Assembly: GCA_019057795.1 (NCBI GenBank)
Contig: JAHLWS010000029.1
Span: 1-17,055 of the forward strand
Length of the DNA: 17,055 nt
Direction: 5' to 3'
Source of the DNA: Promethearchaeota archaeon
GTDB taxonomy: Archaea; Asgardarchaeota; Lokiarchaeia; Sigyniarchaeales; SOKP01
Below the pieces are notes generated by a model. It had not been told where the DNA came from and ran no database searches. It worked only from the letters and a program-made list of their open reading frames with translations. How positions within the stretch are numbered: position 1 is the stretch's first letter; each line of letters starts with the position of its first letter. This document shows, piece by piece, positions 1 to 17,055 of this stretch. The position numbers were made by a program, and so were the translations under genes.

Positions 1-156
1 AGTATTGGTATGAGTATTGCAATGAAGTATAAGGTTGAAAAGCTGTATTATCTTCAATTGTGGGGTCGAGAATATCAAAATCAACCATATATTAAGATTC
101 CTTTAACAAATCAGAAATTAATAAACATTATGGAGTTAACATTAAAACATGGATAG
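1..156 (+). CDS. 3' fragment of a probable stand-alone CARF-domain protein (5' end outside window)
   Basis: Frame 1 is open from base 1: SIGMSIAMKYKVEKLYYLQLWGREYQNQPYIKIPLTNQKLINIMELTLKHG*, TAG at 154-156, overlapping the ATG of the PIN gene by 8 nt. Small-residue helix followed by 'LYYL' strand and 'PYxxIP' resembles the C-terminal end of archaeal CARF proteins; the diagnostic DxTxGxK motif would lie upstream of the window. Confidence 0.55.
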   Translation, partial: SIGMSIAMKYKVEKLYYLQLWGREYQNQPYIKIPLTNQKLINIMELTLKHG

Positions 157-2224: not shown

Positions 2225-3052
2225 TTATTTAATAGAAATTATGGAGTTATATCCAAATCCTAAAGATGTGCGAACTCCAATACCCGTAAATTCTGATAAG
2301 TAAACAAGTTTCCACATTAGAGTTCTCTCAAACGAGTTCCCTACAATTTTAAATGTGATATTTCCTACTTGGCCTTCTAAAGTAATGACTTTATTTTTAT
2401 CAATCGTGTTTGATATATAACCTCGTCTTTTCTGAGTGTAGTCTTGAACGATTCTTAGATATGGATATAGTTCTTCTGCTTCCAAGTTTACTATCCCGAG
2501 TTGTTTAAACTTTTCACATTGGTAATTGAGAAATGTTTCGGCAGTAAATTTATCAAGAGTTCTTTTTCTGGCATTATAAAAAAATGTTGGCGTTTCTAAT
2601 TTTACTGTAATTGTATCAATAGATTGAGGGACTTTATTTAAATTTCCGTGTTCAAATTCCACCCTTTCAATTATGAGTTTTAAACTGCCAATTTCGAGAG
2701 ATTCTTTTTCATTCACATATATTTTTATAAGCTCATGAATGTCGGAGTCAATAGTTTTAATATTGATATATCCCCTTTGGCCTCGCCTAATATGTGTAAA
2801 ACCCCTTCTCTCGGATTCTGGCTGTTTAAAATAAAATCTTAAATAAGAAAATGACCATGGTTTAACAAGTGTCGATTTATGATATTGATACATAATTTTT
2901 GGGTTTACTTGTGATAGGAGATTATAGAACGTTCCTTGTACTTTTGAATGATTCGTTAAAGGAATATCTGCATCATTTTGTGTAATAAGAATGAGTTTGC
3001 AGTTAACTGGTGTTATTTTTTTTCTAAGCTTTGTTCTTGTTTCATAATCCAA
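2225..3052 (-). CDS. cas6: CRISPR pre-crRNA endoribonuclease Cas6
   Basis: C-terminal G-rich loop FTGIGVRTSLGFG, PWSFSYL motif and LETPTFF strand; located at the end of the cas operon. Confidence 0.92.
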   Translation of the reverse strand: MDYETRTKLRKKITPVNCKLILITQNDADIPLTNHSKVQGTFYNLLSQVNPKIMYQYHKSTLVKPWSFSYLRFYFKQPESERRGFTHIRRGQRGYINIKTIDSDIHELIKIYVNEKESLEIGSLKLIIERVEFEHGNLNKVPQSIDTITVKLETPTFFYNARKRTLDKFTAETFLNYQCEKFKQLGIVNLEAEELYPYLRIVQDYTQKRRGYISNTIDKNKVITLEGQVGNITFKIVGNSFERTLMWKLVYLSEFTGIGVRTSLGFGYNSIISIK

Positions 3053-3145
3053 TTTTTCATCACTCTATAATTATTATTTTTTTTGAATAAAAGTACGAAT
3101 TTTTTTACCTTTCATATTTCATTTTTTTCATGAACTAACAAATAT

Positions 3146-3961
3146 TCAATTATATTCAAAATTCAGTAAACCCCTTGTTAAGAGCGAACTAAAAAGTTGA
3201 ATCTCTTGTACATCCTTAGCTGTATATTTAAATTTAATTTTATTATTCATAAAATCAATAGTTAAAGAATTGGAATTAAAAATTTTTTCTTTAAAGATCA
3301 GTTCTGAATCTATATTAGTATCTTGTAATATGAATTTATAATTCTCAAATAAATTATTTGGATTAAAAATAAAATCAAAAGTTGTAGGTTTTATTAAGAC
3401 TGGGTTTTTTTCTAAATTTAATTTTGATGTGAATTTTGGAAACGTCTTATAATTAAATAAGGGATGAAACAAGTATAAAGTATACTTTAATTCCTTATTT
3501 TGAATGGTATCTATAAAATCTTTCTCATTAAAGTCAATAATTGAATTAAAATAATTTTGCCATAGAAAATTATTATGTGAAAGTATCTTCATTTGAGTAT
3601 TTGAGTAAGGTGTCTCAAAATGAAATCCTTTTATTTTTAAATTAAAAACATTTGATTCTAGTATGGATTGGATAATATTTTGGAGAAGTATTAATTTTGG
3701 AACCAATTCCACAGCGTCATTATATAGAACCCATAAGAAATGGATAAGTTTGAATCGTTTTGAGACAGAATAATAAGCTTTGATATTTTGCTGTAATATT
3801 GAACTAATTAAGCTACACGCAGAACCCTCTTTTACACATCTTAAACACGACTTAAAATTTGGGCATAAATTAATTGTTTTTAGCGAAGTTTCAAACTCTT
3901 TATTTAAAACCCTTAATATATGCTCAAGAAAATATTGATTAATGCTTTTCTCTTCAGTCAA
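3146..3961 (-). CDS. Uncharacterised protein with N-terminal C-x5-C-x2-C-x6-C cluster; possible degenerate Zn-finger Cas6-like RAMP
   Basis: 271 aa, in the operon orientation. ILRVLNKEFETSLKTINLCPNFKSCLRCVKEGSAC, FLWVLYNDAVELVPKLI and TLYLFHPL recall Zn-finger (DUF2276-type) Cas6 segments, but there is no G-rich loop. The ORF is likely real; the family call is tentative. Confidence 0.45.
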   Translation of the reverse strand: MTEEKSINQYFLEHILRVLNKEFETSLKTINLCPNFKSCLRCVKEGSACSLISSILQQNIKAYYSVSKRFKLIHFLWVLYNDAVELVPKLILLQNIIQSILESNVFNLKIKGFHFETPYSNTQMKILSHNNFLWQNYFNSIIDFNEKDFIDTIQNKELKYTLYLFHPLFNYKTFPKFTSKLNLEKNPVLIKPTTFDFIFNPNNLFENYKFILQDTNIDSELIFKEKIFNSNSLTIDFMNNKIKFKYTAKDVQEIQLFSSLLTRGLLNFEYN

Positions 3962-4040
3962 TATTTCATATGAGGTAATAAATTTTAAGAATTTTATTTA
4001 AACTCTCCTCAAAATTAAATATTATGATTAAAAAATATTT

Positions 4041-4817
4041 CTAGTTCAGCTTAAAATAATCCGTATAATTTTTAGCTTCCACATCATCAGGAAACAGAAA
4101 ATCTTCTTTAGATTTTAATTCTTTAACTGTGGTCTTCTCTAATACGAACCTACCCATTCCAGTAGACTTTTTGCCACCAAAAGAAACAAATCCTAAATTA
4201 ATCATGTGAAAAAGCGCTTGTAGTAATTCAAATTCTTTTTGTTTGGTCTCTTGTGTGATGTTATTTATAATTATTTTAAATTCGAATTTTACTCCTGGTT
4301 GTAGAGTCTCTATAAAAAATAATGACCCATCCCGAGAAACTTGCTTCTCTCGATCGATCGCTATCCCGGGCTTTAAACCCGAATGCAATTCTTTGATTGT
4401 ATCTTCTACTGGAAAAGCATCAGAAATTATTATATGAGATGCCAAATCATTCCCTCCGAAAATACTACATACTACACAAGGGTCTTTAAACACTTTTTTT
4501 TCTTGTTCTACTGTGCAATATTTCTTTGGATATTCTTCACATATGTACTCTTTTTTGCTTTGTTTATTACCTAAGGATTTAGCAAATGCTTCTACTGCTG
4601 AACGAAAATTTCCTTTTATAGTGCTACTAGGAATATACGGTAAATTTAATGAGGTTCGTAAAATGGCGCTTTCAGGTGAAAAATTAATGTCACTGCCCCC
4701 AATTCCAATATGCATTTGTGTTGTTAATTTAATAACACCTTCAATAATTATTCGGTTCTTAATAATTGCCAAATCAGCACTTGACACATCTTCAATTGAT
4801 TTGTATGTTTTACTCAT
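4041..4817 (-). CDS. cas7: Type III-D Cas7-group RAMP (Csm3/Csx7 family)
   Basis: MHIGIG, PYIPSSTIKGNFRS, CVVCSIFG, ISDA, GIAIDRE, GGKKSTGMG motifs; ATGA overlap with the csx10 stop. Confidence 0.92.
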   Translation of the reverse strand: MSKTYKSIEDVSSADLAIIKNRIIIEGVIKLTTQMHIGIGGSDINFSPESAILRTSLNLPYIPSSTIKGNFRSAVEAFAKSLGNKQSKKEYICEEYPKKYCTVEQEKKVFKDPCVVCSIFGGNDLASHIIISDAFPVEDTIKELHSGLKPGIAIDREKQVSRDGSLFFIETLQPGVKFEFKIIINNITQETKQKEFELLQALFHMINLGFVSFGGKKSTGMGRFVLEKTTVKELKSKEDFLFPDDVEAKNYTDYFKLN

Positions 4818-6028
4818 ATTTTTTTTATCTCCTCCGACATTGGAAAATAAATTAAATTATATCCTAACTCTGAATAGTGGTTTAATCCGACAAATTCCAT
4901 ATAAGCAAGGGCTTCAATTATAGTTTCGTCTAAATCTTGATTAATTTTAAATTTATATAAGGATCCTGGGACTGCAGCTGTTATATGTGGTTTTGGTTGT
5001 TGAGTTTTATAGCTCCATCCTCCAAGTAGTTCTACATCTCCTAACGATTCTTTTAATTGAAATCTATTTTCTAAATTTGAAAGTTTAAGATTCATTTTAG
5101 TATTGACATAGTTTAACGCAGAATTTAAATCGATTTCAGGATTTGATATGATATTTTCATTGAGTTTTTCTAAGGCAAAAATATGGGTTTTTGCAGCAAG
5201 AACAAGTGAGTTCAGTTGACTCATCTCATTTAGCGTTTTTTTATTTTTTTTTATTTTTTCATGAATATCAAGCGGTTTTAAATCTATTCGTACTTTTCCA
5301 AATCCTCGAGATTTAGCTCTCCCTAATCGCAGGAAATTAATATTATTTAAATTATTAAGAACAGGATCATTACGTTCGAATACCAGATAACTCTCAAAAA
5401 TTGAACCTCGTTGTATATACCTATAATTAAATAAATATCCGGTAAGACTACTGTTTTTTGCATAATTAATACTTGTAGAAGTTGTTAACCCTATTTCAGG
5501 ATTCTTTTTCATATAATTGCATGATTTGCAATAATTTCCTCCGACAAGATCCATTGTGGTTTTTCGCTTGCATACTGGATTTTGACAGGTAGCTCGTATA
5601 TAAGGTTCTTCTTCAATTAACCACTCTTTAAGGTAATTAACACATTTTTTATCAGATTCACATCTTTTACATTGTTTAATTAAAGGATGGGTTGGTACTA
5701 AATCAGGATTTTGGCATTCTTTTTCATCTCCTTCATTATTTTCATCTTTCAGAAAAAGCCCGTTAGAAAGAGTAAATACATTTTGATAAAAGAATTGATA
5801 AAATTGACACTCTTCTTTTTTAACACATATTTCACAGTGCCCCCATAGTTCGCTTGTATCTTCAATTTGACATAACTTTGGTAATAATTCTGTTGCAATT
5901 CCTCCCCTTAATGTGATAGAGGGTATATAATCTAAAGTTTTATATAAATTATGATCTGGTGCGGTAAAACCTACTAATAATGGTGCTTCGAGAATAATTT
6001 TTACTCTAAAAAAGTTTAACTCAGTCAT
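4814..6028 (-). CDS. csx10: Type III-D Cas5-group RAMP (Csx10-like), cysteine-rich
   Basis: LEAPLLVG, LDYIPSITLRGGIA, LGRAKSRGFG, GGWS..PKP..AAVPGSLY, SELGYN: the two-RRM Csx10 pattern. Confidence 0.82.
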   Translation of the reverse strand: MTELNFFRVKIILEAPLLVGFTAPDHNLYKTLDYIPSITLRGGIATELLPKLCQIEDTSELWGHCEICVKKEECQFYQFFYQNVFTLSNGLFLKDENNEGDEKECQNPDLVPTHPLIKQCKRCESDKKCVNYLKEWLIEEEPYIRATCQNPVCKRKTTMDLVGGNYCKSCNYMKKNPEIGLTTSTSINYAKNSSLTGYLFNYRYIQRGSIFESYLVFERNDPVLNNLNNINFLRLGRAKSRGFGKVRIDLKPLDIHEKIKKNKKTLNEMSQLNSLVLAAKTHIFALEKLNENIISNPEIDLNSALNYVNTKMNLKLSNLENRFQLKESLGDVELLGGWSYKTQQPKPHITAAVPGSLYKFKINQDLDETIIEALAYMEFVGLNHYSELGYNLIYFPMSEEIKKI

Positions 6029-6662
6029 TAAATCCCATCTTTTTTAATAATTTTAATATTATATCATTATCTTGGGAAAACCCTTCAACTTTATTTATTT
6101 CAATGTCAATTAGCCCATTACCATTTCCAAAACTGCAAAATTTTAAATTATTTAAGGCAAAAATGATCAATAACTCTTCATTCTGAGCTAATTTTTTAGC
6201 TTCAAAGAAGGATTTAAATGAGATATTAGGAGGGATCTGTTCTTTGATAAACAAGCTCCCTCTTTTTGCCTTTCCCGAATCTCTTTCGATACTTGTTTGA
6301 GTAAAATACTGCAAATCAATACGACCCTCAGAAGTAGGAAAAAAATCTTCACAAAATATTTTTGATGGTTTATTATTGGCACCAAAAACTTTACATATTA
6401 TACAACCCTTACAAGAACTTAATTTATCAGTATGTACAGATTTACAGTAGTGCTCATCACCTACGATAAAGTGTGCGATTTGAACAGCACTTGATCGTAA
6501 TAAACCTTTAAAAGTAGTTGCAGGAATGCAAATCCTTTCTTTGCGATTAAATTTACGTCTTAATTGAATAATATCTGCAGACTGGAGAAATTGATTCTTA
6601 CCAGCACCAATTGTTAAATGGGTTTTTGAAATTAAGTTAAGATTCATCTTTAAATTTATCAT
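6021..6662 (-). CDS. cas7: Short Cas7-group RAMP
   Basis: LTIGAG, IPATTFKGLLRS, CIICKVFG, SIERDSGKAKRGSLFIKE, FGNGNG; ATGA overlap with the cas10 stop. Confidence 0.88.
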   Translation of the reverse strand: MINLKMNLNLISKTHLTIGAGKNQFLQSADIIQLRRKFNRKERICIPATTFKGLLRSSAVQIAHFIVGDEHYCKSVHTDKLSSCKGCIICKVFGANNKPSKIFCEDFFPTSEGRIDLQYFTQTSIERDSGKAKRGSLFIKEQIPPNISFKSFFEAKKLAQNEELLIIFALNNLKFCSFGNGNGLIDIEINKVEGFSQDNDIILKLLKKMGFND

Positions 6663-9223
6663 AATAAGCCTCCTGATAAGAATTTTAATAATTCTAAAGA
6701 ATCAAAAAGTAAGAAATCCTCTTTCTTCCCCTCTAGAAAGGAACTACCAATTAAATTGAAAAGCTTAATATAGGATGTTTTTCCTAATAATTCTTTTTGC
6801 CTTCCTGTTTGGTATAACACAAATGAAAGAGCCATCTGCTTTTCCTTGGCAAAATTTTTCGGATTAAATGAGAAAAATGCAGAAACTCGTTTACTTCTAT
6901 TTCTTAAATCTTTTAAAACAGATGGTTTGGAATCATTTTTGTCGTAAACTAACTTAATCTCCTCATTTACAAAATGATACAAGCTATCATAATTCTCCTC
7001 TAAAGTGAATTTTAACTGGTAGTCTTTTCCAATAATGTTGTTTATTACATATTGAATATCTTCTACCTCTTGAATACTTATTCCATTTTGTACGCTAATT
7101 TTAAACGGGCGTCTTGAAAAAACTCTCCTTGGATCTTTAGAATCTTTATCTTTTTTTACAAAATTGGGAACAGTTAACCCAGAAGAAAAACTTTGAAAAT
7201 CGATAACTCCCATTTCGTTATCTTCGCATAGTCTCCCCTCCTTTTTCGCATTCTTTAATAACAATCTTGATGTAGTTATTGCTGACCAGATTGGAAATTT
7301 ATTGGGACAGAGAAAAATTCCGGTAGATAAGGTACATTTTGTTCCCATTTTTTTATAAAATTCCTTGGTTAAGGTGAGTGCGACAGGAATTGCTAAATAT
7401 GCGGGGAGTAGTAATAAGATGTCATCTCCTCCAGAATAAATTTTTCCGATATCAAAACGCGCATAATCAAATTCATGATTATAAATGCTTTTAATCTTAT
7501 TTTCTCCTATAATTGTCTCAAGGATTTCTCTAACTGAATTGGAGATTCTAGTTATTCGAGAATATAAATCTGAAAGGGAGATTGATTTAGCGATAAATTC
7601 AGCCATTAAATTTCCATCTGCATTTAATATTGCTAATTTGTGAGGTTTGGGTACGTTTTCCTTTGAAATATCCTCTAATCGGACTCCGGAAATAAATTCC
7701 ATAAGATTTTGAGAGATATCTTTATAAATATTTTTCCAAATACCTTCTTGAAGACTTAATTTACGAACATCAGGATCTGGTAATTTAAATTTGTATAAAC
7801 ATGGTTTACAATAATATTTTAACTCCGTATCAGAAAAGGGTATTATTTCTGTTGCGATTTTACTTCCACAAGAATCACATAACCTAGAACTTCCGAAGAG
7901 CACATTTTTTTTTTCTTTTTTACTTAAATCGTTCTTTTTTGCCCCTATTTTAATCGCTAGTTTTGAATATAAATCTCCAAACGAATCCTCAAATTTTTGT
8001 TCTTTTTCGTCCACCTCATCAAAGAAATAAATATAATCTGTGGTCATCCATAGTCCTTCGTGCATAGCTTCGTAGAATATTGATTCAATAATACTTGCGA
8101 TTTCTTGAACTTGGGATCCTGGACAAAACAAAATAATATTTCCTCCACTACTGTAGATTATTTGTTCAGGATATAACCTCTTATCTTTGATTAGTTTAGT
8201 AACTAACACGTTAGAAAGGACATGGTCGAGAAGTTTACTTGCATTTCTTAATTCTTCTAACTTATGAACATGGTCCGTATATTCATGTATGTGTCTAACA
8301 TCTCCACGTAGTAAGGCGATAGTTCCATTTTTCTTATAATTTAATTTTACGGGTGGTTGATTTAATAACGCTTTCTCATAACCGCTTACAAATTGTTGGG
8401 TTAGTCTTTTAATCTCGTGCTCGTTAGTTTCCCAGAAATCATTGTTATCAAAATTTTCAATTATATTTTTTTCATTAGACAAAATATTTTTAGTTAGTTT
8501 CAAAAGTTGCTCTGAGGCTAACGATAATCTGCTTCCAAACCTTACGTAACGCGAAAGATTAGAAGAATTGTCATCTTGAATTCCTCTAATTACATCAATT
8601 ATTGTATTAAAAATCTCTTCAGAAAATAAGTTAGTAAAGTGTTTTTCAAATAATTCAATACTGTGATCAATTGAATTAAAGCGGGATAAAGGTTTTCCTA
8701 TTGCGTGGAAAAATGAACTAGTCCTTACGCATTGCATTTGAAGTTCAGAAATGTTTTCTGAGTCTTTTTTTTGCTTCGCTATACATACAGCTAATGCTGA
8801 AGTTGCAATTAGATGGATTAATAAAGACGAGGTATTTAATCCTGGACGATCATCAGCTGGAAATGTATTATAAAATTTTTCAGATAGCGTAAAAAATGTC
8901 TCACATTCTGATTTAATGCTCTCGGAAAAATTGTTAAAATTGGTCTCTAACCAATTAATTACCATTTCATTCCAATATTGTGATAATCCTCCAAATGTAA
9001 GCAGCACGAATAAGTCGTTAGCTTTCTCTAACTGGTTTACATTTTTAATTCCACCTTCGAAGAACAAGAGGAAAATCCTATTTAAAATACTTAAATATTC
9101 ATCCACAAAACCTATATCATTAGTAATATCTCTAACATCTTCAAACTTACCGATATTGGCTTCTTCATAATAATTTGGAATTAAAAAGCCACGAATATAG
9201 CTTTTTCTTGGTTTGTTATTCAA
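6659..9223 (-). CDS. cas10: Cas10 (type III-D) with intact GGDD Palm2 and degenerate HD domain
   Basis: PADDRPGLNTSSLLIHL (Sulfolobales III-D-like), Palm1 GDVRHIHEY and YSSGGNI, Zn finger CDSC/CKPC, ADGNLM, and YSGGDD (GGDD at 7421-7432). The HD motif reads FFHAIGKP. Confidence 0.96.
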   Translation of the reverse strand: MNNKPRKSYIRGFLIPNYYEEANIGKFEDVRDITNDIGFVDEYLSILNRIFLLFFEGGIKNVNQLEKANDLFVLLTFGGLSQYWNEMVINWLETNFNNFSESIKSECETFFTLSEKFYNTFPADDRPGLNTSSLLIHLIATSALAVCIAKQKKDSENISELQMQCVRTSSFFHAIGKPLSRFNSIDHSIELFEKHFTNLFSEEIFNTIIDVIRGIQDDNSSNLSRYVRFGSRLSLASEQLLKLTKNILSNEKNIIENFDNNDFWETNEHEIKRLTQQFVSGYEKALLNQPPVKLNYKKNGTIALLRGDVRHIHEYTDHVHKLEELRNASKLLDHVLSNVLVTKLIKDKRLYPEQIIYSSGGNIILFCPGSQVQEIASIIESIFYEAMHEGLWMTTDYIYFFDEVDEKEQKFEDSFGDLYSKLAIKIGAKKNDLSKKEKKNVLFGSSRLCDSCGSKIATEIIPFSDTELKYYCKPCLYKFKLPDPDVRKLSLQEGIWKNIYKDISQNLMEFISGVRLEDISKENVPKPHKLAILNADGNLMAEFIAKSISLSDLYSRITRISNSVREILETIIGENKIKSIYNHEFDYARFDIGKIYSGGDDILLLLPAYLAIPVALTLTKEFYKKMGTKCTLSTGIFLCPNKFPIWSAITTSRLLLKNAKKEGRLCEDNEMGVIDFQSFSSGLTVPNFVKKDKDSKDPRRVFSRRPFKISVQNGISIQEVEDIQYVINNIIGKDYQLKFTLEENYDSLYHFVNEEIKLVYDKNDSKPSVLKDLRNRSKRVSAFFSFNPKNFAKEKQMALSFVLYQTGRQKELLGKTSYIKLFNLIGSSFLEGKKEDFLLFDSLELLKFLSGGLL

Positions 9224-9250
9224 AAATTTTCAACTCTAAATGCGATTGGT

Positions 9251-9562
9251 TTAAAATATTATAAATTCTGAACTCGAACTTAATTTATCGTGGAGATATA
9301 TTCTTGCTTTCCCCTTTATTTTATGTTGTATAATTAACGAATTACTTAATTTGTTAAATTCCCAAGAGAAATACTTTTCAGTACTATTAATAAAACAATA
9401 GCCGAATCTTGAACCTTTGATTAATTTTTTAAAATTGTCGTCTATTTGAGGTTGCTTTAAGTATGTTTCTGTTAAGTCGTCCTCTATCAAAATGATACTA
9501 ATACCTAAACTCGAAACCTGTTCAATTTTTTCTATTAAACTATTTATCCCATTAGTTTCCAC
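9251..9562 (-). CDS. Small hypothetical protein inside the effector operon (possible reduced Csx19-like subunit)
   Basis: 103 aa, GTG start preceded by AGGGGA; fills the gap between cas7 and cas10 with 20- and 27-nt spacers. No confident family. Confidence 0.6.
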   Translation of the reverse strand: METNGINSLIEKIEQVSSLGISIILIEDDLTETYLKQPQIDDNFKKLIKGSRFGYCFINSTEKYFSWEFNKLSNSLIIQHKIKGKARIYLHDKLSSSSEFIIF

Positions 9563-9582
9563 TTTTCATATCCCCTTATACC

Positions 9583-10521
9583 TTAAGTTGTAGGTTCATT
9601 AAAATTTCTTATAATACTGCTAAAATTCTTATTAATTCCCTCTTTTATACTACTAATAAACATACTAACATTGAGATCCTTCTCATTGAAACCAAGATTA
9701 TCATAAGTAAATTTCATTACTTTTTTAATGCCCAATTTTATTTTTCCGAATTGAATGATTTCTCCATTAGCATCCTTTTGTGGAGAAAATTTGTGCATGC
9801 CAACGCGCAACATCCCATCTTTATGAAGGTTCATTCCTATCATTAATAAAGCTAAATCTTCGGGAGTTCCATTATTCAAGTTGATGGTAAATGAAAATTG
9901 GCTGTCTGGGGGAACTACTCTCTTTCGGTCAGTATATTTCGCAACAATCTCTTTCCGTTCTAGTTGGATTTCATTTACAGGCATAGCATCTGAAAATATC
10001 ACCCGCGAAGCTGAATTCGTGTTTCCGAATAAATCACACACTTTGCATTGGTATTCTGGATATTTTCTCGTTTTCCAATCCCATTTGGTGTCTTCTTTAC
10101 CGCGTGCTTCGGGGAAGTTTGAGTAATTAAAAATATTCAAAAAATTACGGATTTCGTTAATGGGTTTTGGATTAGTTTGCTTAATGAAACAGGAATAGAT
10201 TTCACCGCGATCGTTTGCTTTAAACGAATGTTCTAGGAAAAACCTTATCATTCCTTTCAGGGTAGAACCCGGGATATACGCTTTTCCATCAAGTAAAATT
10301 GAAGAGGACAAAGGCTCTATATGGGTTTGAATTTTGGCAAGCTTTGAATCCAAATCTAGAAGATCCTCAAAATCTTTGTCCTCTATTTGAAAAATTTCGT
10401 CCTTGGAACTTCCAATAAACAGGTAATTATCCTCCATTACTCTAAGATTGACTTTAAATTGGTAAAACGGTTTTGAAAACAACTCCCTGCTACTATTTTT
10501 AATTTTTCTTAGTTTCAACAA
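9583..10521 (-). CDS. cas7: Cas7-group RAMP (Csm5-like capping subunit)
   Basis: YLFIGS, YIPGSTLKGMIR, CKVCDLFG, SRVIFSDA, RVGMHKF...FGKI. Confidence 0.85.
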   Translation of the reverse strand: MLKLRKIKNSSRELFSKPFYQFKVNLRVMEDNYLFIGSSKDEIFQIEDKDFEDLLDLDSKLAKIQTHIEPLSSSILLDGKAYIPGSTLKGMIRFFLEHSFKANDRGEIYSCFIKQTNPKPINEIRNFLNIFNYSNFPEARGKEDTKWDWKTRKYPEYQCKVCDLFGNTNSASRVIFSDAMPVNEIQLERKEIVAKYTDRKRVVPPDSQFSFTINLNNGTPEDLALLMIGMNLHKDGMLRVGMHKFSPQKDANGEIIQFGKIKLGIKKVMKFTYDNLGFNEKDLNVSMFISSIKEGINKNFSSIIRNFNEPTT

Positions 10522-11380
10522 ATTTACTCCATACCTCCATAAAGTTATTAATTAAAGCTTGACTAAACTCTTCTCGACTCTTTTGTTTCAATTCAGTTAA
10601 ATTAAATATTACGTCTCTATCAACTCCATTTCCGCCTGAGATACTACTGATTTTAAAAGTTTCTGATGGGTGATCAATTAACGATTTATAATCAATTACA
10701 TCAGAATCCTCAAGTTTTTTTACTTCAATTTTATCAATTAGTATTTTGACTTGTCCCAATCCTGCTCTTTTTTTCCCACCAATTAAAATTACATTCTTAT
10801 TTATTAAATAAATTACGTTGAACAGTAATCCTATCAAATAATTGGGAAGATTGTCAATTTTAATTTGAAAATTAAAGAAGGAACCCGGATTGATGTGTTC
10901 AACTGTAAAAATTCCCCCCCCCATAGTTGTCCCATCTATTCTATTTATTGCAATACCTGGGGCTGTGTCAAATTTAACCGCCGCTAAATCGATAGGTATA
11001 CAATCGTATAGAGTTACATTACTTGAATAGCTTAAACCCCCAAAAATTTTACAAGCTATACATAAATTGTTAATTTCATGCCTAATCTTTTCTACATTTT
11101 TATCTCTAGTTGCGTAAGATATTTCTTTACTAATTTCTGAGCACGAACTTCTTCTTGCTAACATACATGTATAAATTCCTAAAGATTTTAGTATAAATTC
11201 TATTGAAGATCGAAATATCCCTTTCAAAGAAGATCCTGGGATATAGGGAAGATCAATATTTCCCATTTTTATTCGAATTAAAACACTTTCTGATCCCTCA
11301 AAATTAGCTTCAGCATTACCGCTTCCCACATGAACCCTACCTATTGTTTCGAGTATCCCCGAGATTCTAACTGATCGCAT
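10499..11380 (-). CDS. cas7: Cas7-group RAMP (Csx7 family)
   Basis: VHVGSG, PYIPGSSLKGIFRS, CIACKIFG, GIAINR, IGGKKRAGLG; the true start may be an in-frame CTG at 11407. Confidence 0.92.
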   Translation of the reverse strand: MRSVRISGILETIGRVHVGSGNAEANFEGSESVLIRIKMGNIDLPYIPGSSLKGIFRSSIEFILKSLGIYTCMLARRSSCSEISKEISYATRDKNVEKIRHEINNLCIACKIFGGLSYSSNVTLYDCIPIDLAAVKFDTAPGIAINRIDGTTMGGGIFTVEHINPGSFFNFQIKIDNLPNYLIGLLFNVIYLINKNVILIGGKKRAGLGQVKILIDKIEVKKLEDSDVIDYKSLIDHPSETFKISSISGGNGVDRDVIFNLTELKQKSREEFSQALINNFMEVWSKFVETKKN

Positions 11381-11412
11381 GAATTCACTATGATCTAAAT
11401 AAGTCAGAGTTA

Positions 11413-12192
11413 TTAATCACCTAAAAATTTAAGTAGATCTATAGCTTGGATATTATAAAACTCGTGAAGGTCTTCAGGTCTTATCTCTATTATCTTCGCA
11501 TCTGCAATCTTAATGTTTCCTAAACCCGTAGATCTCTTTCCCCCTACATAAATCCATCCTTCTAGTAATTTTTTTAGGAGAAATTTAATCGCGCGCGTTA
11601 TTATATTGTCTTCTTTTAAATCGATATTAATAATTTGTAGCTCAAAGCTAAAAATTCCACCTGGTTGCAAGGACTCTACTGGGAAAACAGCGCCCCTTTG
11701 AGCCGCACCAGTTATACGATTTATCGCAACTCCTGGTTTATTTTTTATTCCTGGAAACTTATCCATGTCCAATATAGCATCTGACACAATTATATGCGAG
11801 CCTACTTGAGAATTACCAAATATCCGACAAGCTAAACATATATTTTCGATTTCTTTCGTGTTGCAACTATTTCTGTTTTCATAGACATAGCAAACATTCT
11901 GAAAATGCTCAGGTTTATAAGTTTTCTCTTGAATTTTTAAATATTTCTCAATTTCAGTTCTAAATATACCTTTTAAGCTAGATCCTGGGATATAAGGTAC
12001 ATCAGTATTTCCAATCTTTAACCGTATTAAAGGGTTATCAATTGAAAACTCTGCTTCTATCCCTCCTGCTCCAACATGTAATTGAGAAATGTTAATTATA
12101 TTTCCTTTAATAACATATCTACAATCAAATTGTGCAAAATTATCTGGTTTTTTTAATATATGATTATCATTATAATCTTCTGTTTTTTCCAT
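11413..12192 (-). CDS. cas7: Cas7-group RAMP (Csm3/Csx7 backbone, catalytic Asp retained)
   Basis: LHVGAG...IDNPLIR, PYIPGSSLKGIFR, CLACRIFG, VSDA, VGGKRSTGLG; GGTGAGG SD upstream. Confidence 0.93.
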   Translation of the reverse strand: MEKTEDYNDNHILKKPDNFAQFDCRYVIKGNIINISQLHVGAGGIEAEFSIDNPLIRLKIGNTDVPYIPGSSLKGIFRTEIEKYLKIQEKTYKPEHFQNVCYVYENRNSCNTKEIENICLACRIFGNSQVGSHIIVSDAILDMDKFPGIKNKPGVAINRITGAAQRGAVFPVESLQPGGIFSFELQIINIDLKEDNIITRAIKFLLKKLLEGWIYVGGKRSTGLGNIKIADAKIIEIRPEDLHEFYNIQAIDLLKFLGD

Positions 12193-12209
12193 TATAACCT
12201 CACCACGAT

Positions 12210-12644
12210 TTAATGTCGTTTTCTCTTTCTTAAAGCAGAACTTTGAAAACTACTAATTATTGATTTAAATGCGTTTTCAAGATTTATATCACCAAATAAA
12301 TTTATATTTTTAACAGCTTCAAAAAGCCACTTTAATAAGCCTAAATATTCTCGAACTTGCCGTTTTTTTTCGATATCTTGTATTTCTTTATTCCCTACTC
12401 TTTGCTCTAGCATAATATTTTTTAAAGTTTCAACGATAGTCGCAGTTGATGCGTTTTTAAAATATTTTCTTTCCCTCTGTTTCATAACAAACGCCATTAT
12501 AAGCATAATTGTGTTTTCGATATCTCTTTTTAAATTAGTGTTATAAATACCTAACAATTGATTCACTTGGTTATTTTTAACTCGATCTTGTTTACATAAG
12601 ATAGCTGCTAAACTTGCTCTGTTAAATATTTCTTTATACTCCAT
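12210..12644 (-). CDS. csm2: Small subunit Cas11 (Csm2-like, type III-D)
   Basis: 144 aa, predicted all-helical, with FVMKQRER and REYLGLLKWLFEA motifs; first effector gene, as in Sulfolobales III-D loci. Confidence 0.78.
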   Translation of the reverse strand: MEYKEIFNRASLAAILCKQDRVKNNQVNQLLGIYNTNLKRDIENTIMLIMAFVMKQRERKYFKNASTATIVETLKNIMLEQRVGNKEIQDIEKKRQVREYLGLLKWLFEAVKNINLFGDINLENAFKSIISSFQSSALRKRKRH

Positions 12645-12796
12645 TAAATTTCCTCTTTTTTTTTATTGGTAAATATCTATTGGATTTTATTATTTTTAAA
12701 TCTTTTATAAAAATGTCAAATCTAAGTAATTTTACAGTAACCATTCAATATAAATACATTTCTTCGATCATGTTAAAAGAAGAGCTACCATTACTG

Positions 12797-13003
12797 TTAA
12801 AACCCTCCCCCTTGTATTTTAATTATCATACCTTCTTCCCAGATATTATGTAATTCTTCAGATTTTATAGATACATCGTATATCTGACCGCATTCTAAAC
12901 AAATATCTTCTTCAATAAATTCAAGACAGTTAGGACACATAAAAAATTGCCCAAACTCTTTAGACTCGTACACAAAAACCGCTCTGGAATATAAAATTGT
13001 CAA
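12797..13003 (-). CDS. Small zinc-ribbon protein (CxxC-x8-CxxC)
   Basis: 68 aa, CPNC...CLECG; strong GAGGTGA SD upstream of the TTG start. Confidence 0.72.
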   Translation of the reverse strand: MTILYSRAVFVYESKEFGQFFMCPNCLEFIEEDICLECGQIYDVSIKSEELHNIWEEGMIIKIQGGGF

Positions 13004-13026
13004 TCTTGTTTTTTCACCTCTATTAA

Positions 13027-13203
13027 TTAACTAATTCTTATTTTTAACGAATATTTTGTCTGAAGCTTTTTTTTATTAACAGGATCGATACCACAACCCT
13101 CTGAAAGTTCCTGGTATATGCTTCTTTCCACCCATTTTTCAAATAATCTCTTTGCGTATATGCTGGATTTAGAACTGTCTTTCTGAATTTTTTTTTCGCT
13201 CAT
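13027..13203 (-). CDS. Small basic hypothetical protein, probably leaderless
   Basis: ATG at 13203 lies about 23 nt downstream of a TTTAAATA box (13233-13226), giving 58 aa; followed directly by the SD of the Zn-ribbon gene. Confidence 0.5.
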   Translation of the reverse strand: MSEKKIQKDSSKSSIYAKRLFEKWVERSIYQELSEGCGIDPVNKKKLQTKYSLKIRIS

Positions 13204-13225
13204 AAATAACAAATGATCATTCTCA

Positions 13226-13254
13226 TATTTAAATGTTTCTCACCTTGATATGAG
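13226..13254 (-). promoter_or_regulatory. Archaeal promoter (TTTAAATA) with adjacent CTCA-N8-TGAG operator A (13239-13254)
   Basis: Minus strand reads CTCAtatcaaggTGAG-aaaca-TTTAAATA. Confidence 0.72.
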
Positions 13255-13281
13255 TTTTTCCCCAAAATTACATTTCCATAG

Positions 13282-13297
13282 CTCAGTACTTTATGAG
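13282..13297. promoter_or_regulatory. Palindromic operator B, CTCA-N8-TGAG
   Basis: CTCAgtactttaTGAG. Confidence 0.68.
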
Positions 13298-13400
13298 GGA
13301 AACCAGTATTACGAAAATCCAATATATGGTTATATAAGCATTTTAAGTCAACAATTCTAAAATTACTCGCCTAAAAAAACAAATATTATTCTCACACTAA

Positions 13401-13416
13401 CACATAATACTATGAG
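13401..13416. promoter_or_regulatory. Degenerate operator C, CACA-N8-TGAG
   Basis: CACAtaatactaTGAG, one mismatch to the consensus. Confidence 0.4.
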
Positions 13417-13542
13417 AAGAAAAATAAATCGATTAAGGAATTTATGCAACAGAAACTATAAAATTGTGCCCAAAACCTCTCGTGGTACGAGCACTTAATA
13501 AGAGTAACATTTGTTCTCATCTCTATATTGTCATCAATAGAG

Positions 13543-14196
13543 TTAAATCCAAATTATTTTTCTCCCACTGAAATAACAACGCCTAAGGTTATATTCTGTG
13601 CTCAGATTTAAGAGAGCGATAGAAACCGGTTTTGTACCACCTGTTATTTCACAGACAATTTCGTAATTTTTGATCTCTTCTTTAAAAATCTTTTCTAACT
13701 CTTCATAAATTTGCTGATAATTTTCTCTTAGAACTTTTTGATAATCGAATTCTCTCACAACAATTTCTACTTCTTCGTATTTGCTTTTATCTAATTTACT
13801 AAACTCCTCGTGGTAATCTGGGCTTGTGAATAACACGTATTTTCTCGGGATGATACTAATCTCTTCAAAAGCTGCGAGAACGTCATTGAACAGCGTAGGA
13901 ATTCCTAACCCACCAATAAGGCAAATTGGAACAGTTTTTTTATAATAGTTCCTTAATGGCTGTCTTGCGATTGCATTTAACGTATAAGAACCTCTTTCCG
14001 TTTTTTCTAGCATACCATCTTTTACTAATCTTTTAAGATGATGATCCGCGCGTTTTGACATGTTTTTATTAATAAGATAGCTGCTAATTTCATTGAATTC
14101 GTAAATTTCTTTGCTATCGTCTTCAAGAAACATTAAAATAATTTTTTCTCTATTTTTATCCTCAAAACTTTTTTCAATTGTTCTTTTCTCTATCAT
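13543..14196 (-). CDS. wHTH-CARF transcriptional regulator (Csa3-like domains in reversed order)
   Basis: N-terminal winged helix (FNEISSYL...ADHHLKRLVKDGMLEKTERGSYTL); C-terminal CARF (CLIGGLG, KYVLFTS, CEITGGTKPVSIAL, RCYFS). Confidence 0.88.
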   Translation of the reverse strand: MIEKRTIEKSFEDKNREKIILMFLEDDSKEIYEFNEISSYLINKNMSKRADHHLKRLVKDGMLEKTERGSYTLNAIARQPLRNYYKKTVPICLIGGLGIPTLFNDVLAAFEEISIIPRKYVLFTSPDYHEEFSKLDKSKYEEVEIVVREFDYQKVLRENYQQIYEELEKIFKEEIKNYEIVCEITGGTKPVSIALLNLSTEYNLRRCYFSGRKIIWI

Positions 14197-14319
14197 TTTT
14201 AAAAGTTTTATATCAATTCATTTTAACATGTATAAATCTCATTATCTCATAATGGTCAAAAACCTTAAATAGTTTTATTTCGTAATTTATTAATCGCTTA
14301 AGAATTGCTAAAATATATA

Positions 14320-14337
14320 TCTCATACAATAATGAGA
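14320..14337. promoter_or_regulatory. Palindromic operator D, TCTCAT-N6-ATGAGA
   Basis: TCTCATacaataATGAGA; a minus-strand TTTAAATA lies at 14346-14339, immediately beside it. Confidence 0.7.
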
Positions 14338-14466
14338 CTATTTAAAGTTATGTAAAAAAAAACAAAAAAATTCAGTTAAATTGCATAACGAGTATATTTA
14401 TATGGCTTTATTACTTCAACTATTCTCCAAAAATCTAAAATAGTTGTTTAATCCAAAAATCTAGAA

Positions 14467-14495
14467 TCTCATCAATTTATGAGAAAGTTTAAATA
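14467..14495 (+). promoter_or_regulatory. Operator E (14467-14484) plus TATA box (14488-14495) of the crn2-cas2-cas1-cas4 operon
   Basis: TCTCATcaatttATGAGA-aag-TTTAAATA. Confidence 0.74.
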
Positions 14496-14577
14496 TCTTA
14501 ATTTTTATTATCATATTAAATACAATATTCTTTCTACTTGGAGGGTAAAAGATAAGAAATCATTCAAAACTTAGGAG

Positions 14578-14925
14578 ATGTTAATGACAGAACAAAAATC
14601 ACAAGTTCTTAAAATAGATTATATTTTGAACGCTCCAATCTTAACGAATTGGGGCGTATACAAGTATTTTTTATATTCTCATAAAACCAGCAACTTGGAA
14701 CTATCTAACGCAATTTCCGCCGTAGGACACGCTTCAACCGCAAAATTAATGTCGAAACTTTTAAATTATCCGATTAAAGTCAATAGAATTAAAATACAAA
14801 TGAAAGTTGGAGAAACTGCGTTAGTGTTTTCTCTTAAAGATAGACAACCAGAAGGTATCGTCTTGAGTTTGAAAGATATTAAAAAATTAAAATACAAATT
14901 AGGTATATTAAAAAGGGTTAAATAA
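14578..14925 (+). CDS. crn2: DUF1874 / AcrIII-1-family cA4 ring nuclease (Crn2)
   Basis: YILNAPIL, SAVGHASTA (catalytic GH), VNRI, RQPEG motifs; 115 aa; AGGAG SD favours the ATG at 14584. Confidence 0.92.
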   Translation: MLMTEQKSQVLKIDYILNAPILTNWGVYKYFLYSHKTSNLELSNAISAVGHASTAKLMSKLLNYPIKVNRIKIQMKVGETALVFSLKDRQPEGIVLSLKDIKKLKYKLGILKRVK

Positions 14926-15039
14926 ACATATTTTTTATTTGATGGAAGCACTTAAGAAAATCGTCCAACCACTTGAAATTAGAGTTTTGAATAATAACCC
15001 AAAAGACTTAATGTAAAATGGATTAGAAGGTGAAAAAGC

Positions 15040-15302
15040 ATATTTATTGTAGCTTATGATATTTCAGACAATAAAAGGTTGCGAGTAATTGCAAAGATTT
15101 GCGAAAATTATTTAATACGAGTACAAAAGTCTGTTTTTGAGGGAGAATTGAGTAAAAGTCAATTATACGCTCTGAAAAAAGATTTGAAAAAAGAAATAAA
15201 TAAAGAGGAAGACTTGTTATGGTTTATTTTATAAGGCGTACTTCAATAAGAAAAAAAATACAATTAGGGAGAAAAGTTGAAGATCCCTTTGTCATATTTT
15301 AA
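15040..15302 (+). pseudogene. cas2: cas2, frameshifted and with an ATA start (missed by the ORF track)
   Basis: AGGTGA SD at 15028-15033, then ATA-FIVAYDISDNKRLRVIAKICENYLIRVQKSVFEGEL...EED. That frame stops at 15232-15234; the Cas2-like tail VMVYFIRRTSIRKKIQLGRKVEDPFVIF* is in the -1 frame (15216-15302). One base is missing at about 15214-15215; the repaired length is 87 aa. Confidence 0.88.
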
Positions 15303-15343
15303 TTTAAAATATATTAATAGTGGATTAAAATGGTGAAAATTAG

Positions 15344-16363
15344 ATGAAAGAAATGTTATACATTATGAATTCTAATGTTGAACTCTTAAAATCTAAAAAT
15401 ATTATAAAATGCTTAAGACCAGATCCAGATGAGCCAGGTAAATTTAAATTGCAAATGATTCCAATCTCCCGATTGAATTCTATTGAAGTATATGGAAATG
15501 TTAAAATTTCAACTCCGCTGTTAAAATTATGTAATAAAGTCAAAATTCCATGCTATTTTAATACTTATTATGGTGTTCCGATAGGCAAATTTGTCCCTGA
15601 AAATTCGAGGTCAAGCGTAATTCGATTGAAGCAATATGAAACCTTTCTTAATACGCAAAAAAAATTACATATAGCAAAAGCGATTGTAAGTAAAGCGACT
15701 CAAGAACGAAATATTATTTTACTAAAATACGATAAGAACAAAACAATTAAGAAAAACATATCTAGAATAACTCAGTATGTAAAAAAAATAAGCGGAGTAA
15801 AAAGCGTCTCAGAACTTCGCGGAATCGAAGGGAATATTATGAAAAATTATTTCGAATGTTTTTCAAAATTACTTTATCATTTACCATTTAATGGAAGATC
15901 ACAACGTCCACCGAAAGATGAAGGGAATTCTATTTTAAGTTTCGGTAATGTTTTATTATATAACACTGTTCGCTCTGAAGTTTATAGATCCGCCCTTGAT
16001 CCATTGGTAGGGTTTCTACACGAACCCCATGAAAATAGAGCGTCTTTAGCACTTGATATAGCAGAAATATTTCGTCCAATAATCGTAGATAATTTGATAT
16101 TACATCTTGACCATAAAAAAAATCTTTTAACAAATCATTTTGATAGGGACGAAATGAAATGTTATTTGAACCAAAAAGGGAAAAAGATTTGGATAAAACA
16201 GTTTAAAGAGCGACTGCGATCATCTATAAGATATACGCCACTTAAGCGAAACATTGCAATTCAAGAAGAAATAAAACTTGAATGTTATAATCTTATAAAA
16301 TACATTTCAGGAGAAAAGAAAGAATATATTCCAATTAACTTCAATAATTATTTGAGGTATTAA
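15344..16363 (+). CDS. cas1: Cas1 integrase (I-B-like)
   Basis: LRGIEG, RSQRPPKD..NSILSFGN, GFLHEP, SLALDIAEIFRP; catalytic E/H/E present. Confidence 0.97.
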   Translation: MKEMLYIMNSNVELLKSKNIIKCLRPDPDEPGKFKLQMIPISRLNSIEVYGNVKISTPLLKLCNKVKIPCYFNTYYGVPIGKFVPENSRSSVIRLKQYETFLNTQKKLHIAKAIVSKATQERNIILLKYDKNKTIKKNISRITQYVKKISGVKSVSELRGIEGNIMKNYFECFSKLLYHLPFNGRSQRPPKDEGNSILSFGNVLLYNTVRSEVYRSALDPLVGFLHEPHENRASLALDIAEIFRPIIVDNLILHLDHKKNLLTNHFDRDEMKCYLNQKGKKIWIKQFKERLRSSIRYTPLKRNIAIQEEIKLECYNLIKYISGEKKEYIPINFNNYLRY

Positions 16364-16920
16364 TGATAATCATGTTTACACACCAATATATTGAACCACA
16401 CCAAGTAAATGCGTTTGCATATTGCAAAAGGAAATGGTACTATCAGAACAGGTTAAAATTACAAATTATTAACGATCACATGGAAATTGGGTCCTACATT
16501 AAAGAGCACCATTGGATGAAAACCATCAAACGAAAGGAAATCTATCTCATGTCTAATAAATGGAAATTAAAAGGAATGTGTGATTATATAATTGAAGAAA
16601 ATGGTTTCCAAATTCCTATAGAAATCAAAAAAGGCAAGTGTTCTGCTGTAAAACCCTACAAAAACGATGTAATGCAATTATTATGTTATGTGTTATTATT
16701 AGAAGAAAATTTAGGAATCAAATACACACATGGATATATTCTTTACGTAGGATCAAAACGGAAATTCACGGTAAATATCACACCTAACTTGAGAAAGAAA
16801 ATACAAAATTACTTCAAAGAGATTAAATCTTATTTACGGAACGGAAAAATGCCAGAACTTCAAAGCAACAAAATTTGTTGTGTAGGATGTTCTTTTGAAG
16901 AATATTGTTGGTTTGAATAA
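16363..16920 (+). CDS. cas4: Cas4 RecB-like nuclease
   Basis: YCKRKWY, GMCDY, PIEIKKG, QLLCY, C-terminal CxxCxxxxxC; TAATG coupling to cas1. Confidence 0.95.
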   Translation: MIIMFTHQYIEPHQVNAFAYCKRKWYYQNRLKLQIINDHMEIGSYIKEHHWMKTIKRKEIYLMSNKWKLKGMCDYIIEENGFQIPIEIKKGKCSAVKPYKNDVMQLLCYVLLLEENLGIKYTHGYILYVGSKRKFTVNITPNLRKKIQNYFKEIKSYLRNGKMPELQSNKICCVGCSFEEYCWFE

Positions 16921-16942
16921 GCTAACGATGAAAAGAAGAATG

Positions 16943-16981
16943 GAAACATTTAAATAGGTAGACTTCACATTTATAAATGAG
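16943..16981 (+). promoter_or_regulatory. Promoter (BRE/TATA) with a degenerate operator; possible CRISPR leader
   Basis: GAAACATTTAAATA at 16943-16956 is identical to the 14-mer of the minus-strand promoter at 13239-13226; CACA-tttataaa-TGAG at 16966-16981. Confidence 0.45.
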
Positions 16982-17055
16982 TTAAGTTTCTACCGTGATC
17001 GATAGAGGTGACGGTAAAAACCGAATAAAAACGCAATTTATGAGGAGTACAGTAC

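Follow-up and report, generated by a model that had tools for sequence, protein, structure and literature searches.

A putative wHTH-CARF regulator and palindromic operator-like sites at the promoters of a type III-D CRISPR locus and its ring nuclease gene in a Lokiarchaeial contig

The 17,055-nt contig JAHLWS010000029.1 of the Promethearchaeota archaeon assembly GCA_019057795.1 carries a type III-D CRISPR locus in which the gene for a regulator, composed of a winged helix-turn-helix (wHTH) and a CARF domain, is surrounded by six copies of a 16-nt palindrome, three of them closely followed by a TATA-like box. The window analysed here is this entire contig (C29), and the assembly comprises 4.95 Mb at 31% GC. 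On the basis of predicted folds, sequence motifs and gene linkage, we consider it probable that the regulator is a one-component factor which couples the cyclic oligoadenylate (cOA) signal of Cas10 to the promoters of the effector operon, of the crn2 ring nuclease gene and of the regulator itself, giving a self-terminating pulse of expression. The initial annotation of the window had proposed a closed feedback circuit running from the Cas10 signal through the regulator to the interference, ring nuclease and adaptation genes. The wiring of this circuit is supported by folds, motifs, operators and linkage, but the adaptation arm proved weak and the arm through the sixth palindrome is loosely conserved. 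In the following, contigs of the assembly are designated by C and compared loci by L numbers.

Palindromic sites around the regulator gene

Palindromes of the form CTCAT-N6-RTGAG (16 nt, at most one mismatch) occur six times in the window, always in non-coding DNA around the regulator gene, with starts at positions 13239 (S1), 13282 (S2), 13401 (S3), 14321 (S4), 14468 (S5) and 16966 (S6). Counted per strand, these are 12 hits against 1.42 expected, a number reached by 0/200 shuffles. The exact palindrome is found at seven positions genome-wide, four of which lie in C29 and in contig C3, which carries a paralogous copy of the module. With up to one mismatch allowed, 109 positions are found (22 per Mb), and clusters of at least two palindromes within 400 nt are almost confined to C29 and C3. 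In S1 (minus strand), S4 and S5 a TTTAAA(TA) box begins 4-5 nt after the palindrome. Genome-wide, TTTAAA lies within 6 nt of 7/218 palindrome strand sites, five of the seven being in C29 and C3, against a background chance of 1.7% per site. The palindrome counts, the non-coding placement and the box spacing together indicate that the described anatomy is real and non-random. The designation of the boxes as TATA rests on the archaeal consensus, since the genome-wide rise of TTTAAA/TTTATA at -40 to -21 before long open reading frames (ORFs) is weak. The sites and the two genes that they flank are as follows:

13229-13254, minus strand: putative operator S1 (13239-13254) with TTTAAATA box (13229-13236), 5-nt gap, facing the III-D effector operon
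13282-13297: operator-like palindrome S2, one mismatch, kept in L022
13401-13416: operator-like palindrome S3, one mismatch, kept in L022
13543-14196, minus strand: regulator, 217 amino acids (aa)
14229-14250, minus strand: tandem half-sites ATGAGATAATGAGA (14237-14250, minus-strand reading) abutting TTTATACA (14229-14236), ~40 nt before the regulator ATG
14321-14346, plus strand: putative operator S4, perfect palindrome (14321-14336) with TTTAAA (14341-14346), between the divergent regulator and crn2
14468-14495, plus strand: putative operator S5 (operator E of the initial annotation), perfect palindrome (14468-14483) with TTTAAATA (14488-14495), 4-nt gap, facing crn2
14512: ATTAAATA, downstream of S5, possible alternative crn2 promoter
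14584-14925, plus strand: crn2, DUF1874/AcrIII-1-family ring nuclease, 113 aa counted from the second ATG
16966-16981: palindrome variant S6, one mismatch, 9 nt after TTTAAATA at 16949-16956, CRISPR leader

Between the S1 box and the ATG of the first small ORF in the effector operon there are 22 nt, which is the distance of a leaderless transcript. The operator/TATA unit that had been supposed to point toward this operon is found in S1 and its box. The unit is identical in L022, the closest locus, and a degenerate copy of the operator, with the same TATA-like box and small-ORF start, precedes the effector operon of the paralogous locus. The composite units of S4 and S5 are both oriented toward crn2. 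The half-sites proximal to the regulator are kept in C3, L022, L023, L007, L008 and L010, and in almost every locus tandem half-sites, either ATGAGATAATGAGA or ATGAGATTATG, stand by a TATA-like box ~40-80 nt upstream of the regulator start. This arrangement fits autoregulation, for which the half-sites are the candidate site.

The regulator stop and the effector promoter are separated by a 318-nt non-coding spacer (13213-13530), which holds S1-S3 and a small hairpin, CTCGT-ACC-ACGAG, and is 91% identical to its counterpart in L022, the DNA identities for comparison being 78% for the regulator gene, 86% for cas10 and 60% for crn2. The spacer might be a recently exchanged block or a dense control region, or might represent a small RNA. 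Elsewhere in the same genome, a perfect palindrome, CTCATAATCACATGAG, is present at the end of C55 (L003, 2052-2628) and at the start of C74 (L004, 1-577), followed at 11 nt by TTTAAATA and at ~45 nt by the start of an ORF without a Pfam family. The two copies of this ORF are ~90% identical and each is cut by the contig end; the ORF may be an extra member of the regulon.

Linkage of the palindrome to regulator homologues

A palindrome is present at most 500 nt upstream of the regulator homologue in 11 of 16 distinct foreign loci with full-length homologues of 37-79% identity. In total, 7.7 kb of upstream sequence contain 14 sites, a density of 1.8 per kb; the remainder of these loci has 0.11 per kb and the genome of the window 0.022 per kb (Poisson P ~1e-13 or lower). 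Many of the palindromes upstream of the foreign homologues again abut TTTAAA boxes. When the regulator-crn2 intergenic regions of the window, C3, L022 and L023 are aligned, the tandem half-sites, S4 with its box and S5 with its box stand out as islands, the remainder of the region diverging with indels. In L022, where the regulator is 78% identical, cas4-cas1-cas2-crn2 are divergent from the regulator, the effector operon follows and S1-S3 are kept. A 79%-identical homologue in L007 (10001-10654) retains the tandem half-sites before its start.

Predicted structure of the regulator

The AlphaFold2 model of the full-length regulator, built from a 23-sequence alignment, has a predicted local distance difference test (pLDDT) score of 93.9 and shows an ArsR/SmtB-like wHTH at approximately residues 1-85, followed by a CARF domain at approximately residues 90-217. 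The latter matches the CARF domains of Cam1, Can2, Card1, Csm6 and Crn1 with a Foldseek probability of 1.0, and the protein scores 25.1 bits against the Pfam family CARF_Card1 (PF23400; cut-off 24.6). The motifs CLIGGLG and TGGTK are invariant, the first CARF loop (GGLG) lacking the usual Ser/Thr. Modelled separately (pLDDT 89.5), residues 1-85 match the folds of CadC, CzrA, HlyU and ArsR at template-modelling scores of 0.6-0.67 (best E 1.7e-3), and no Pfam or NCBIfam ArsR model matches the regulator. CadC, CzrA, HlyU and ArsR are ligand-released repressors, and members of the ArsR/SmtB-like family typically let go of DNA on ligand binding. The model and its fold matches thus uphold the wHTH-CARF architecture that had been proposed for the protein. 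They contradict the Csa3-type order of N-terminal CARF and C-terminal wHTH, and the top 50 fold matches of the regulator do not include Csa3. By fold and motifs the regulator is a member of the CARF superfamily; its fold neighbours and its linkage to Cas10 and Crn2 suggest that it binds a cOA. Both the predicted recognition-helix segment, R-P/A-D-x-H-L, and the half-site are invariant.

Among 1.84 billion representative sequences the regulator family comprises 62 clusters at E<=1e-3 and 11 at E<=1e-30. Among the genomes sampled it was found in 0/27 other species of the same genus and in 4/68 genomes of the same family. Distant wHTH-CARF-like homologues (22-29% identity) from other Asgard families do not extend the circuit: in the four such loci that were fetched, no homologues of the window's cas genes and no palindrome near the homologue were found. 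One of them (L040) has a single palindrome with one mismatch ~1.8 kb from the homologue, and the homologue in genome G006 sits among housekeeping genes.

CARF-only paralogues of 142-146 aa, which lack the wHTH, are encoded in L010 (7157-7585), L025 (2024-2464) and L018/L019 (~3840-4240), either beside the regulator or directly after crn2, and might act as a sponge, a ring nuclease or a partner. Homologues of the PHP phosphoesterase encoded in the window adjoin CARF-only paralogues in L017 (~5310-5492), L020 (3377-4174) and L032 (5891-6820), which hints at a role in the turnover of cOA or its products.

The Crn2 ring nuclease

The Crn2 protein scores 74.5 bits against PF08960 (cut-off 26) and aligns to AFV3-109, STIV B116 and AcrIII-1 (2J6B, 2J85, 2X4I, 6SCF), with the catalytic GH..ST His and the R..E pair kept. 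Degradation of cyclic tetra-adenylate (cA4) is a property of this family, cellular members of which are rare (7/242 ring-nuclease-positive loci; PMC12409355). The gene probably starts at 14584, as a stop codon follows the first ATG in the paralogue. In agreement with the gene order given initially, crn2 is the first gene behind S5 and is followed by cas2, cas1 and cas4. A divergent arrangement of crn2 and the regulator gene is found in the window, C3, L022, L023, L028 and L029; in L031 and L010 the two are one to three genes apart. In a sample of 301 genomes of the phylum, Crn2 scored above the cut-off in six, four of which have a regulator-family gene on the contig that carries crn2; these four come from a single taxonomic family.

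The effector operon, Cas10 and a second sensor

The remaining features of the window are:

1-1213, plus strand: NE0113-like CARF protein, C-terminal part (1-153, truncated at the contig end), and a 354-aa PIN-like protein that overlaps it (149-1213)
2225-13212, minus strand: III-D effector operon, behind S1
6659-9223, minus strand: Cas10
15040-15302, plus strand: cas2, ATA at the start position, 1-nt frameshift near 15205-15214
15344-16363, plus strand: cas1
16363-16920, plus strand: cas4
16921-17055, plus strand: CRISPR leader, 135 nt, the contig stopping where the array should start

The effector operon encodes, in order, two small ORFs, a 144-aa protein, three Csx7-type RAMPs, a 103-aa protein, Cas10, a RAMP, Csx10, Csx7, a 271-aa protein and Cas6, and is followed by the PHP phosphoesterase gene (1319-2224). 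The presence of Cas10, Csx10 and several Csx7-type Cas7 genes places it in type III-D. Three of the RAMPs score above the cut-off of TIGR02581 (Csx7), and the best match of the 404-aa RAMP is Csx10 (TIGR02674), at 57 bits and below the cut-off. The Cas10 protein matches palm2 and retains its cyclase motif (SGGDD at aa 597-601, GGDD at 598-601), as do those of L022, L008 and L012. The HD motif is lost, the corresponding stretch reading FFHAIGK in the window, FFHAVG in L022 and FFHEIGK in L008, so that HA is found where HD is expected and the description of Cas10 as HD-dead holds. As relatives read HA (L022) and HE (L008), this loss is old.

The regulator is probably not the only cOA sensor of the locus, for the split NE0113-like CARF and PIN module at the left end of the contig (1-1213) is a probable second cOA-sensing effector. 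This two-gene module, in which a ~170-aa NE0113-like CARF protein overlaps the 354-aa PIN-like protein, recurs near the regulator; the genes are adjacent in L008 (11356-12913) and L029 (3190-4735) and fused into one 701-aa protein in L010 (4829-6934). It is likely to be a split cOA-activated nuclease.

An Rfam scan of 12600-17055 returned zero matches. A scan for sigma-70 promoters and hairpin terminators, which is uninformative for an archaeon, returned promoter-like matches at shuffle level and zero terminators. A bacterial origin of the contig, suspected from the low GC content and the repeat type, is ruled out by the small subunit (SSU) rRNA of the assembly, which scores 1458 bits with the archaeal against 1118 bits with the bacterial model, and by the named homologues of the regulator, all of which are in Lokiarchaeia/Promethearchaeota records.

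The assembly contains a second copy of the module on C3, comprising the 5′ end of the regulator gene, S4, S5 and crn2. On C83 and C3 together, the regulator-crn2-leader module is joined with another set of type III effectors, for which C83 (L034, 1339-9236) encodes a 540-aa Cas10 (palm2), RAMPs of 753 and 460 aa and a 691-aa fusion of a RAMP with a cold-shock domain. An extra 225-aa CARF_Card1-like protein is encoded between cas6 and the regulator in this locus.

Proposed circuit

In the circuit that we propose, the ArsR-like winged helix would recognise CTCAT-N6-ATGAG and the CARF domain would sense a cOA, most likely cA4, produced by the cyclase-competent and HD-inactive Cas10. The operators would abut or overlap the transcription factor B (TFB) recognition element (BRE) and TATA box of the regulator, crn2 and III-D effector promoters, and possibly those of the CRISPR leader, and cas2-cas1-cas4 would be reached by read-through from the crn2 promoter, with which they may be co-transcribed. 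In the absence of the signal, a regulator dimer on the operators would hold expression at a low basal level, and some leakiness would be needed for the effector complex to be present before infection. Recognition of target RNA would lead Cas10 to make cA4, the binding of which to the CARF dimer would re-orient the winged helices and release the DNA, so that all arms would rise together. Newly made Crn2 would then degrade cA4 and newly made regulator would rebind, making the pulse self-terminating. This feedback reading is plausible, and timer behaviour is a hypothesis that would follow from it.

Provided that the factor binds these sites, we are moderately confident that the sign of the regulation is derepression. 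A ligand-released repressor is favoured because the proximal half-site occupies the BRE position by the TATA-like box and S6 lies between TATA and transcript start, and because the factor appears to be autoregulated and its DNA-binding domain resembles ArsR/SmtB repressors. The fullest form of the proposal, a complete pulse generator encoded in one locus, in which an independently evolved wHTH-CARF repressor would be freed by cA4 from the promoters of all five arms (effectors, crRNA, adaptation, regulator and crn2), is put forward tentatively.

Several observations weigh against this circuit. The 4-5 nt gap between operator and TATA-like box fits occlusion of TFB and does not prove the sign, and the DNA binding of Csa3a in vitro was unchanged by cA4 (PMC8699464, PMC8844856). 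Several of the foreign loci are near-duplicates, so that their counts overstate independence. Across 14.5 kb around the regulator homologue of L007, which looks like an orphaned copy, cas genes and palindromes are absent. No recognisable palindrome directly precedes crn2 in L010, L028/29 and L031, and direct operator control is thereby documented only in the subclade of at least 77% identity. The frameshift in cas2 and a T6-A-T3 run directly after the crn2 stop codon, a plausible archaeal termination signal, point to an adaptation arm that may have little or no function in this genome. Finally, S6 lies in AT-rich DNA, has one mismatch and is loosely conserved.

Adaptation genes and leader

The last two points bear on a narrower circuit, in which control by the regulator extends to its own gene, crn2 and the effector operon, but in this genome neither the adaptation genes nor the array belong to the regulon. 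We regard this version as somewhat unlikely. The genes cas1 and cas4 are intact and cas2 is not, a 1-nt frame change being required near 15205-15214 in the window and in none of L022, L028, L029 and L010; a sequencing error is possible. A tRNA-type micro-intron as the cause of the frame break was ruled out, the alignment showing a 1-nt shift and no extra ~30 nt. The start position of cas2 reads ATA in the window, ATT in L022, L028 and L029, and GTG in L010. Each of the ATA and ATT positions stands a few nucleotides after GGTGA, and a conserved near-cognate start codon is suggested. The frameshift and the ATA, together with the T-run after crn2 and a crn2-cas2 gap of ~114 nt against ~45 nt in L022, speak for the narrower circuit, as does the arrangement in L028/29, where cas2-cas1-cas4 are located downstream of the regulator with their own operator-like unit and TTAAATA, so that direct control would be achieved differently there. 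Against it stand the near contiguity of crn2 and cas2 in L022, which suggests an operon, and the lack of any other evident TATA-like box between crn2 and cas2. With no operator of its own in the window, the adaptation arm is the weakest part of the circuit.

The palindrome variant that had been noted after cas4 is present as S6, but it is an element of the CRISPR leader, and so of a possible crRNA arm. This placement follows from C3, where the stretch found behind cas4 in the window comes directly after crn2 and leads into a CRISPR array, whose 30-nt repeat ends in ATTGAAAC. The position of S6 would overlap the transcript start. In the L022 leader the box and the right half-site are present and the left half is displaced by 5 nt, and the leaders of L008, L018, L029, L030 and L032 contain no palindrome with up to two mismatches. 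The poor conservation of S6 likewise favours the narrower circuit, and its assignment as an operator is tentative.

Alternative explanations

Other readings concern the regulator itself. It could be an autoregulated factor that binds the sites with its CARF domain uncoupled from the Cas10 signal, the domain serving in dimerisation, as a sponge, as a slow ring nuclease or as sensor of another ligand, and crn2 and the effectors being constitutive. The behaviour of Csa3a in vitro would be in line with such uncoupling, as would the first loop without Ser/Thr, the ~143-aa CARF-only paralogues beside crn2 or the regulator, and the L007 homologue outside a CRISPR context. The invariance of TGGTK and of the CARF core in the family, the strong linkage to type III operons, crn2 and cas1/cas4, and the fact that the best fold matches are cA4-binding CARFs argue otherwise, and we hold this explanation to be unlikely.

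A similarly poor prospect, and if anything a slightly lesser one, is given to the same factor and operators acting with the opposite sign, cA4 being a co-repressor or being needed to activate some promoters. Detection would then shut crn2 and the cas genes, with positive cA4 feedback and dormancy via the CARF and PIN effector. The sign cannot be read from sequence, both geometries occur (in L013, L015, L016 and L017 the regulator-proximal palindrome lies between two TATA-like boxes), and the second cOA sensor with its PIN nuclease does exist. Yet release of DNA upon ligand binding is typical of the ArsR/SmtB-like fold family, BRE-overlapping operators with autocontrol fit classic derepression, and a cellular Crn2 would be pointless if the ring nuclease were shut off on alarm.

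That the palindromes are sites of another factor or parts of a mobile promoter cassette, their link to the regulator being plain synteny, is very improbable, for in spite of the possibly recently exchanged block (the 318-nt spacer with S1-S3 and two small ORFs are 91-94% identical to L022, the regulator gene 78% at the DNA level) and of a similar unit before an unrelated ORF at the C55 and C74 ends, the palindrome tracks homologues down to 37% identity despite differing neighbours (cas6, array, type III operon or nothing recognisable), and the recognition-helix segment and the half-site are both invariant. The ligand-released wHTH-CARF repressor accordingly remains our preferred reading of the locus.

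Significance and comparison with known systems

Type III signalling must be turned off to spare the cell. To our knowledge, the setting of ring-nuclease levels is largely unknown, and we know of almost no experimentally studied gene regulation in Asgard archaea. The design suggested here is compact: beyond Crn2 it comprises a single small regulator and a 16-nt operator at three or four promoters. If it holds, detection would boost interference and memory formation and the delayed induction of the ring nuclease would end the alarm, and crn2 would be the first ring-nuclease gene under cOA-dependent transcriptional control. The operator and regulator pair could serve as a cA4-responsive switch. 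In the literature, we found no paper with the strings 'wHTH-CARF' or 'HTH-CARF' and none in which a cOA-sensing regulator governs a ring-nuclease gene.

Control of adaptation genes and CRISPR leaders by cOA through a transcription factor has already been described for Csa3a and Csa3b (PMC8699464, PMC7480081, PMC8284326). Csa3a is a cA4-binding protein whose CAPPa palindrome is found in CRISPR leaders and, at the acquisition cassette, 12 bp upstream of the BRE (PMC8699464); Csa3b ties cOA to adaptation and Cmr (PMC7480081). A review terms Csa3-type coupling positive feedback (PMC8284326), and the 2025 CRISPR classification includes transcriptional regulators among the cOA-activated effectors (PMC12669027). 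Like the Csa3a and Csa3b proteins of Sulfolobales (PMC8699464, PMC8844856, PMC7480081), the regulator of the window is a one-component factor with a CARF domain and a winged helix that is encoded inside a CRISPR locus. Palindromes at cas promoters and in the leader are likewise shared with Csa3a and CAPPa, albeit with a different motif, as is the proposed coupling of type III detection to cas and crRNA expression, with cA4 as the likely ligand here. It differs from Csa3 in its domain order of wHTH then CARF, in the lack of a sequence match, in a CARF fold nearest to Cam1, Can2 and Card1, and in an ArsR/SmtB-like winged helix. The operator, CTCAT-N6-ATGAG, is located 4-5 nt from TATA, in contrast to the 12 bp between CAPPa and BRE. 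The locus is of type III-D instead of I-A, the host is an Asgard archaeon and the putative regulon appears to include a ring-nuclease gene.

ArsR/SmtB repressors are matched in predicted fold by the N-terminal 85 residues of the regulator, with no Pfam ArsR/HTH_5 model hit, and dimeric binding of inverted repeats and control of its own gene would be likely parallels, but its sensor is a fused CARF domain instead of metal or thiol sites. With the Sso1393-type Crn1, a CARF-wHTH ring nuclease, it shares CARF and winged helix in a cOA-signalling context, but the domain order is opposite and the first CARF loop, lacking Ser/Thr, gives no sign of ring-nuclease activity. The Crn2 protein of the window has the PF08960 match, the GH..ST His and the R..E pair in common with Crn2/AcrIII-1 (PMC12409355; PDB 6SCF, 2J6B, 2J85). 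Unlike the rare cellular Crn2, it recurs in several Loki-type loci, divergent to a CARF regulator and behind its putative operator. As signalling by cA4 through a CARF transcription factor to cas genes and leaders is established for Csa3, the present locus would extend a known principle and not found one. What appears to be new is the reversed domain order, the Asgard host and the ring-nuclease gene in the putative regulon. The locus suggests that cOA-controlled transcription arose a second time, with this order of domains.

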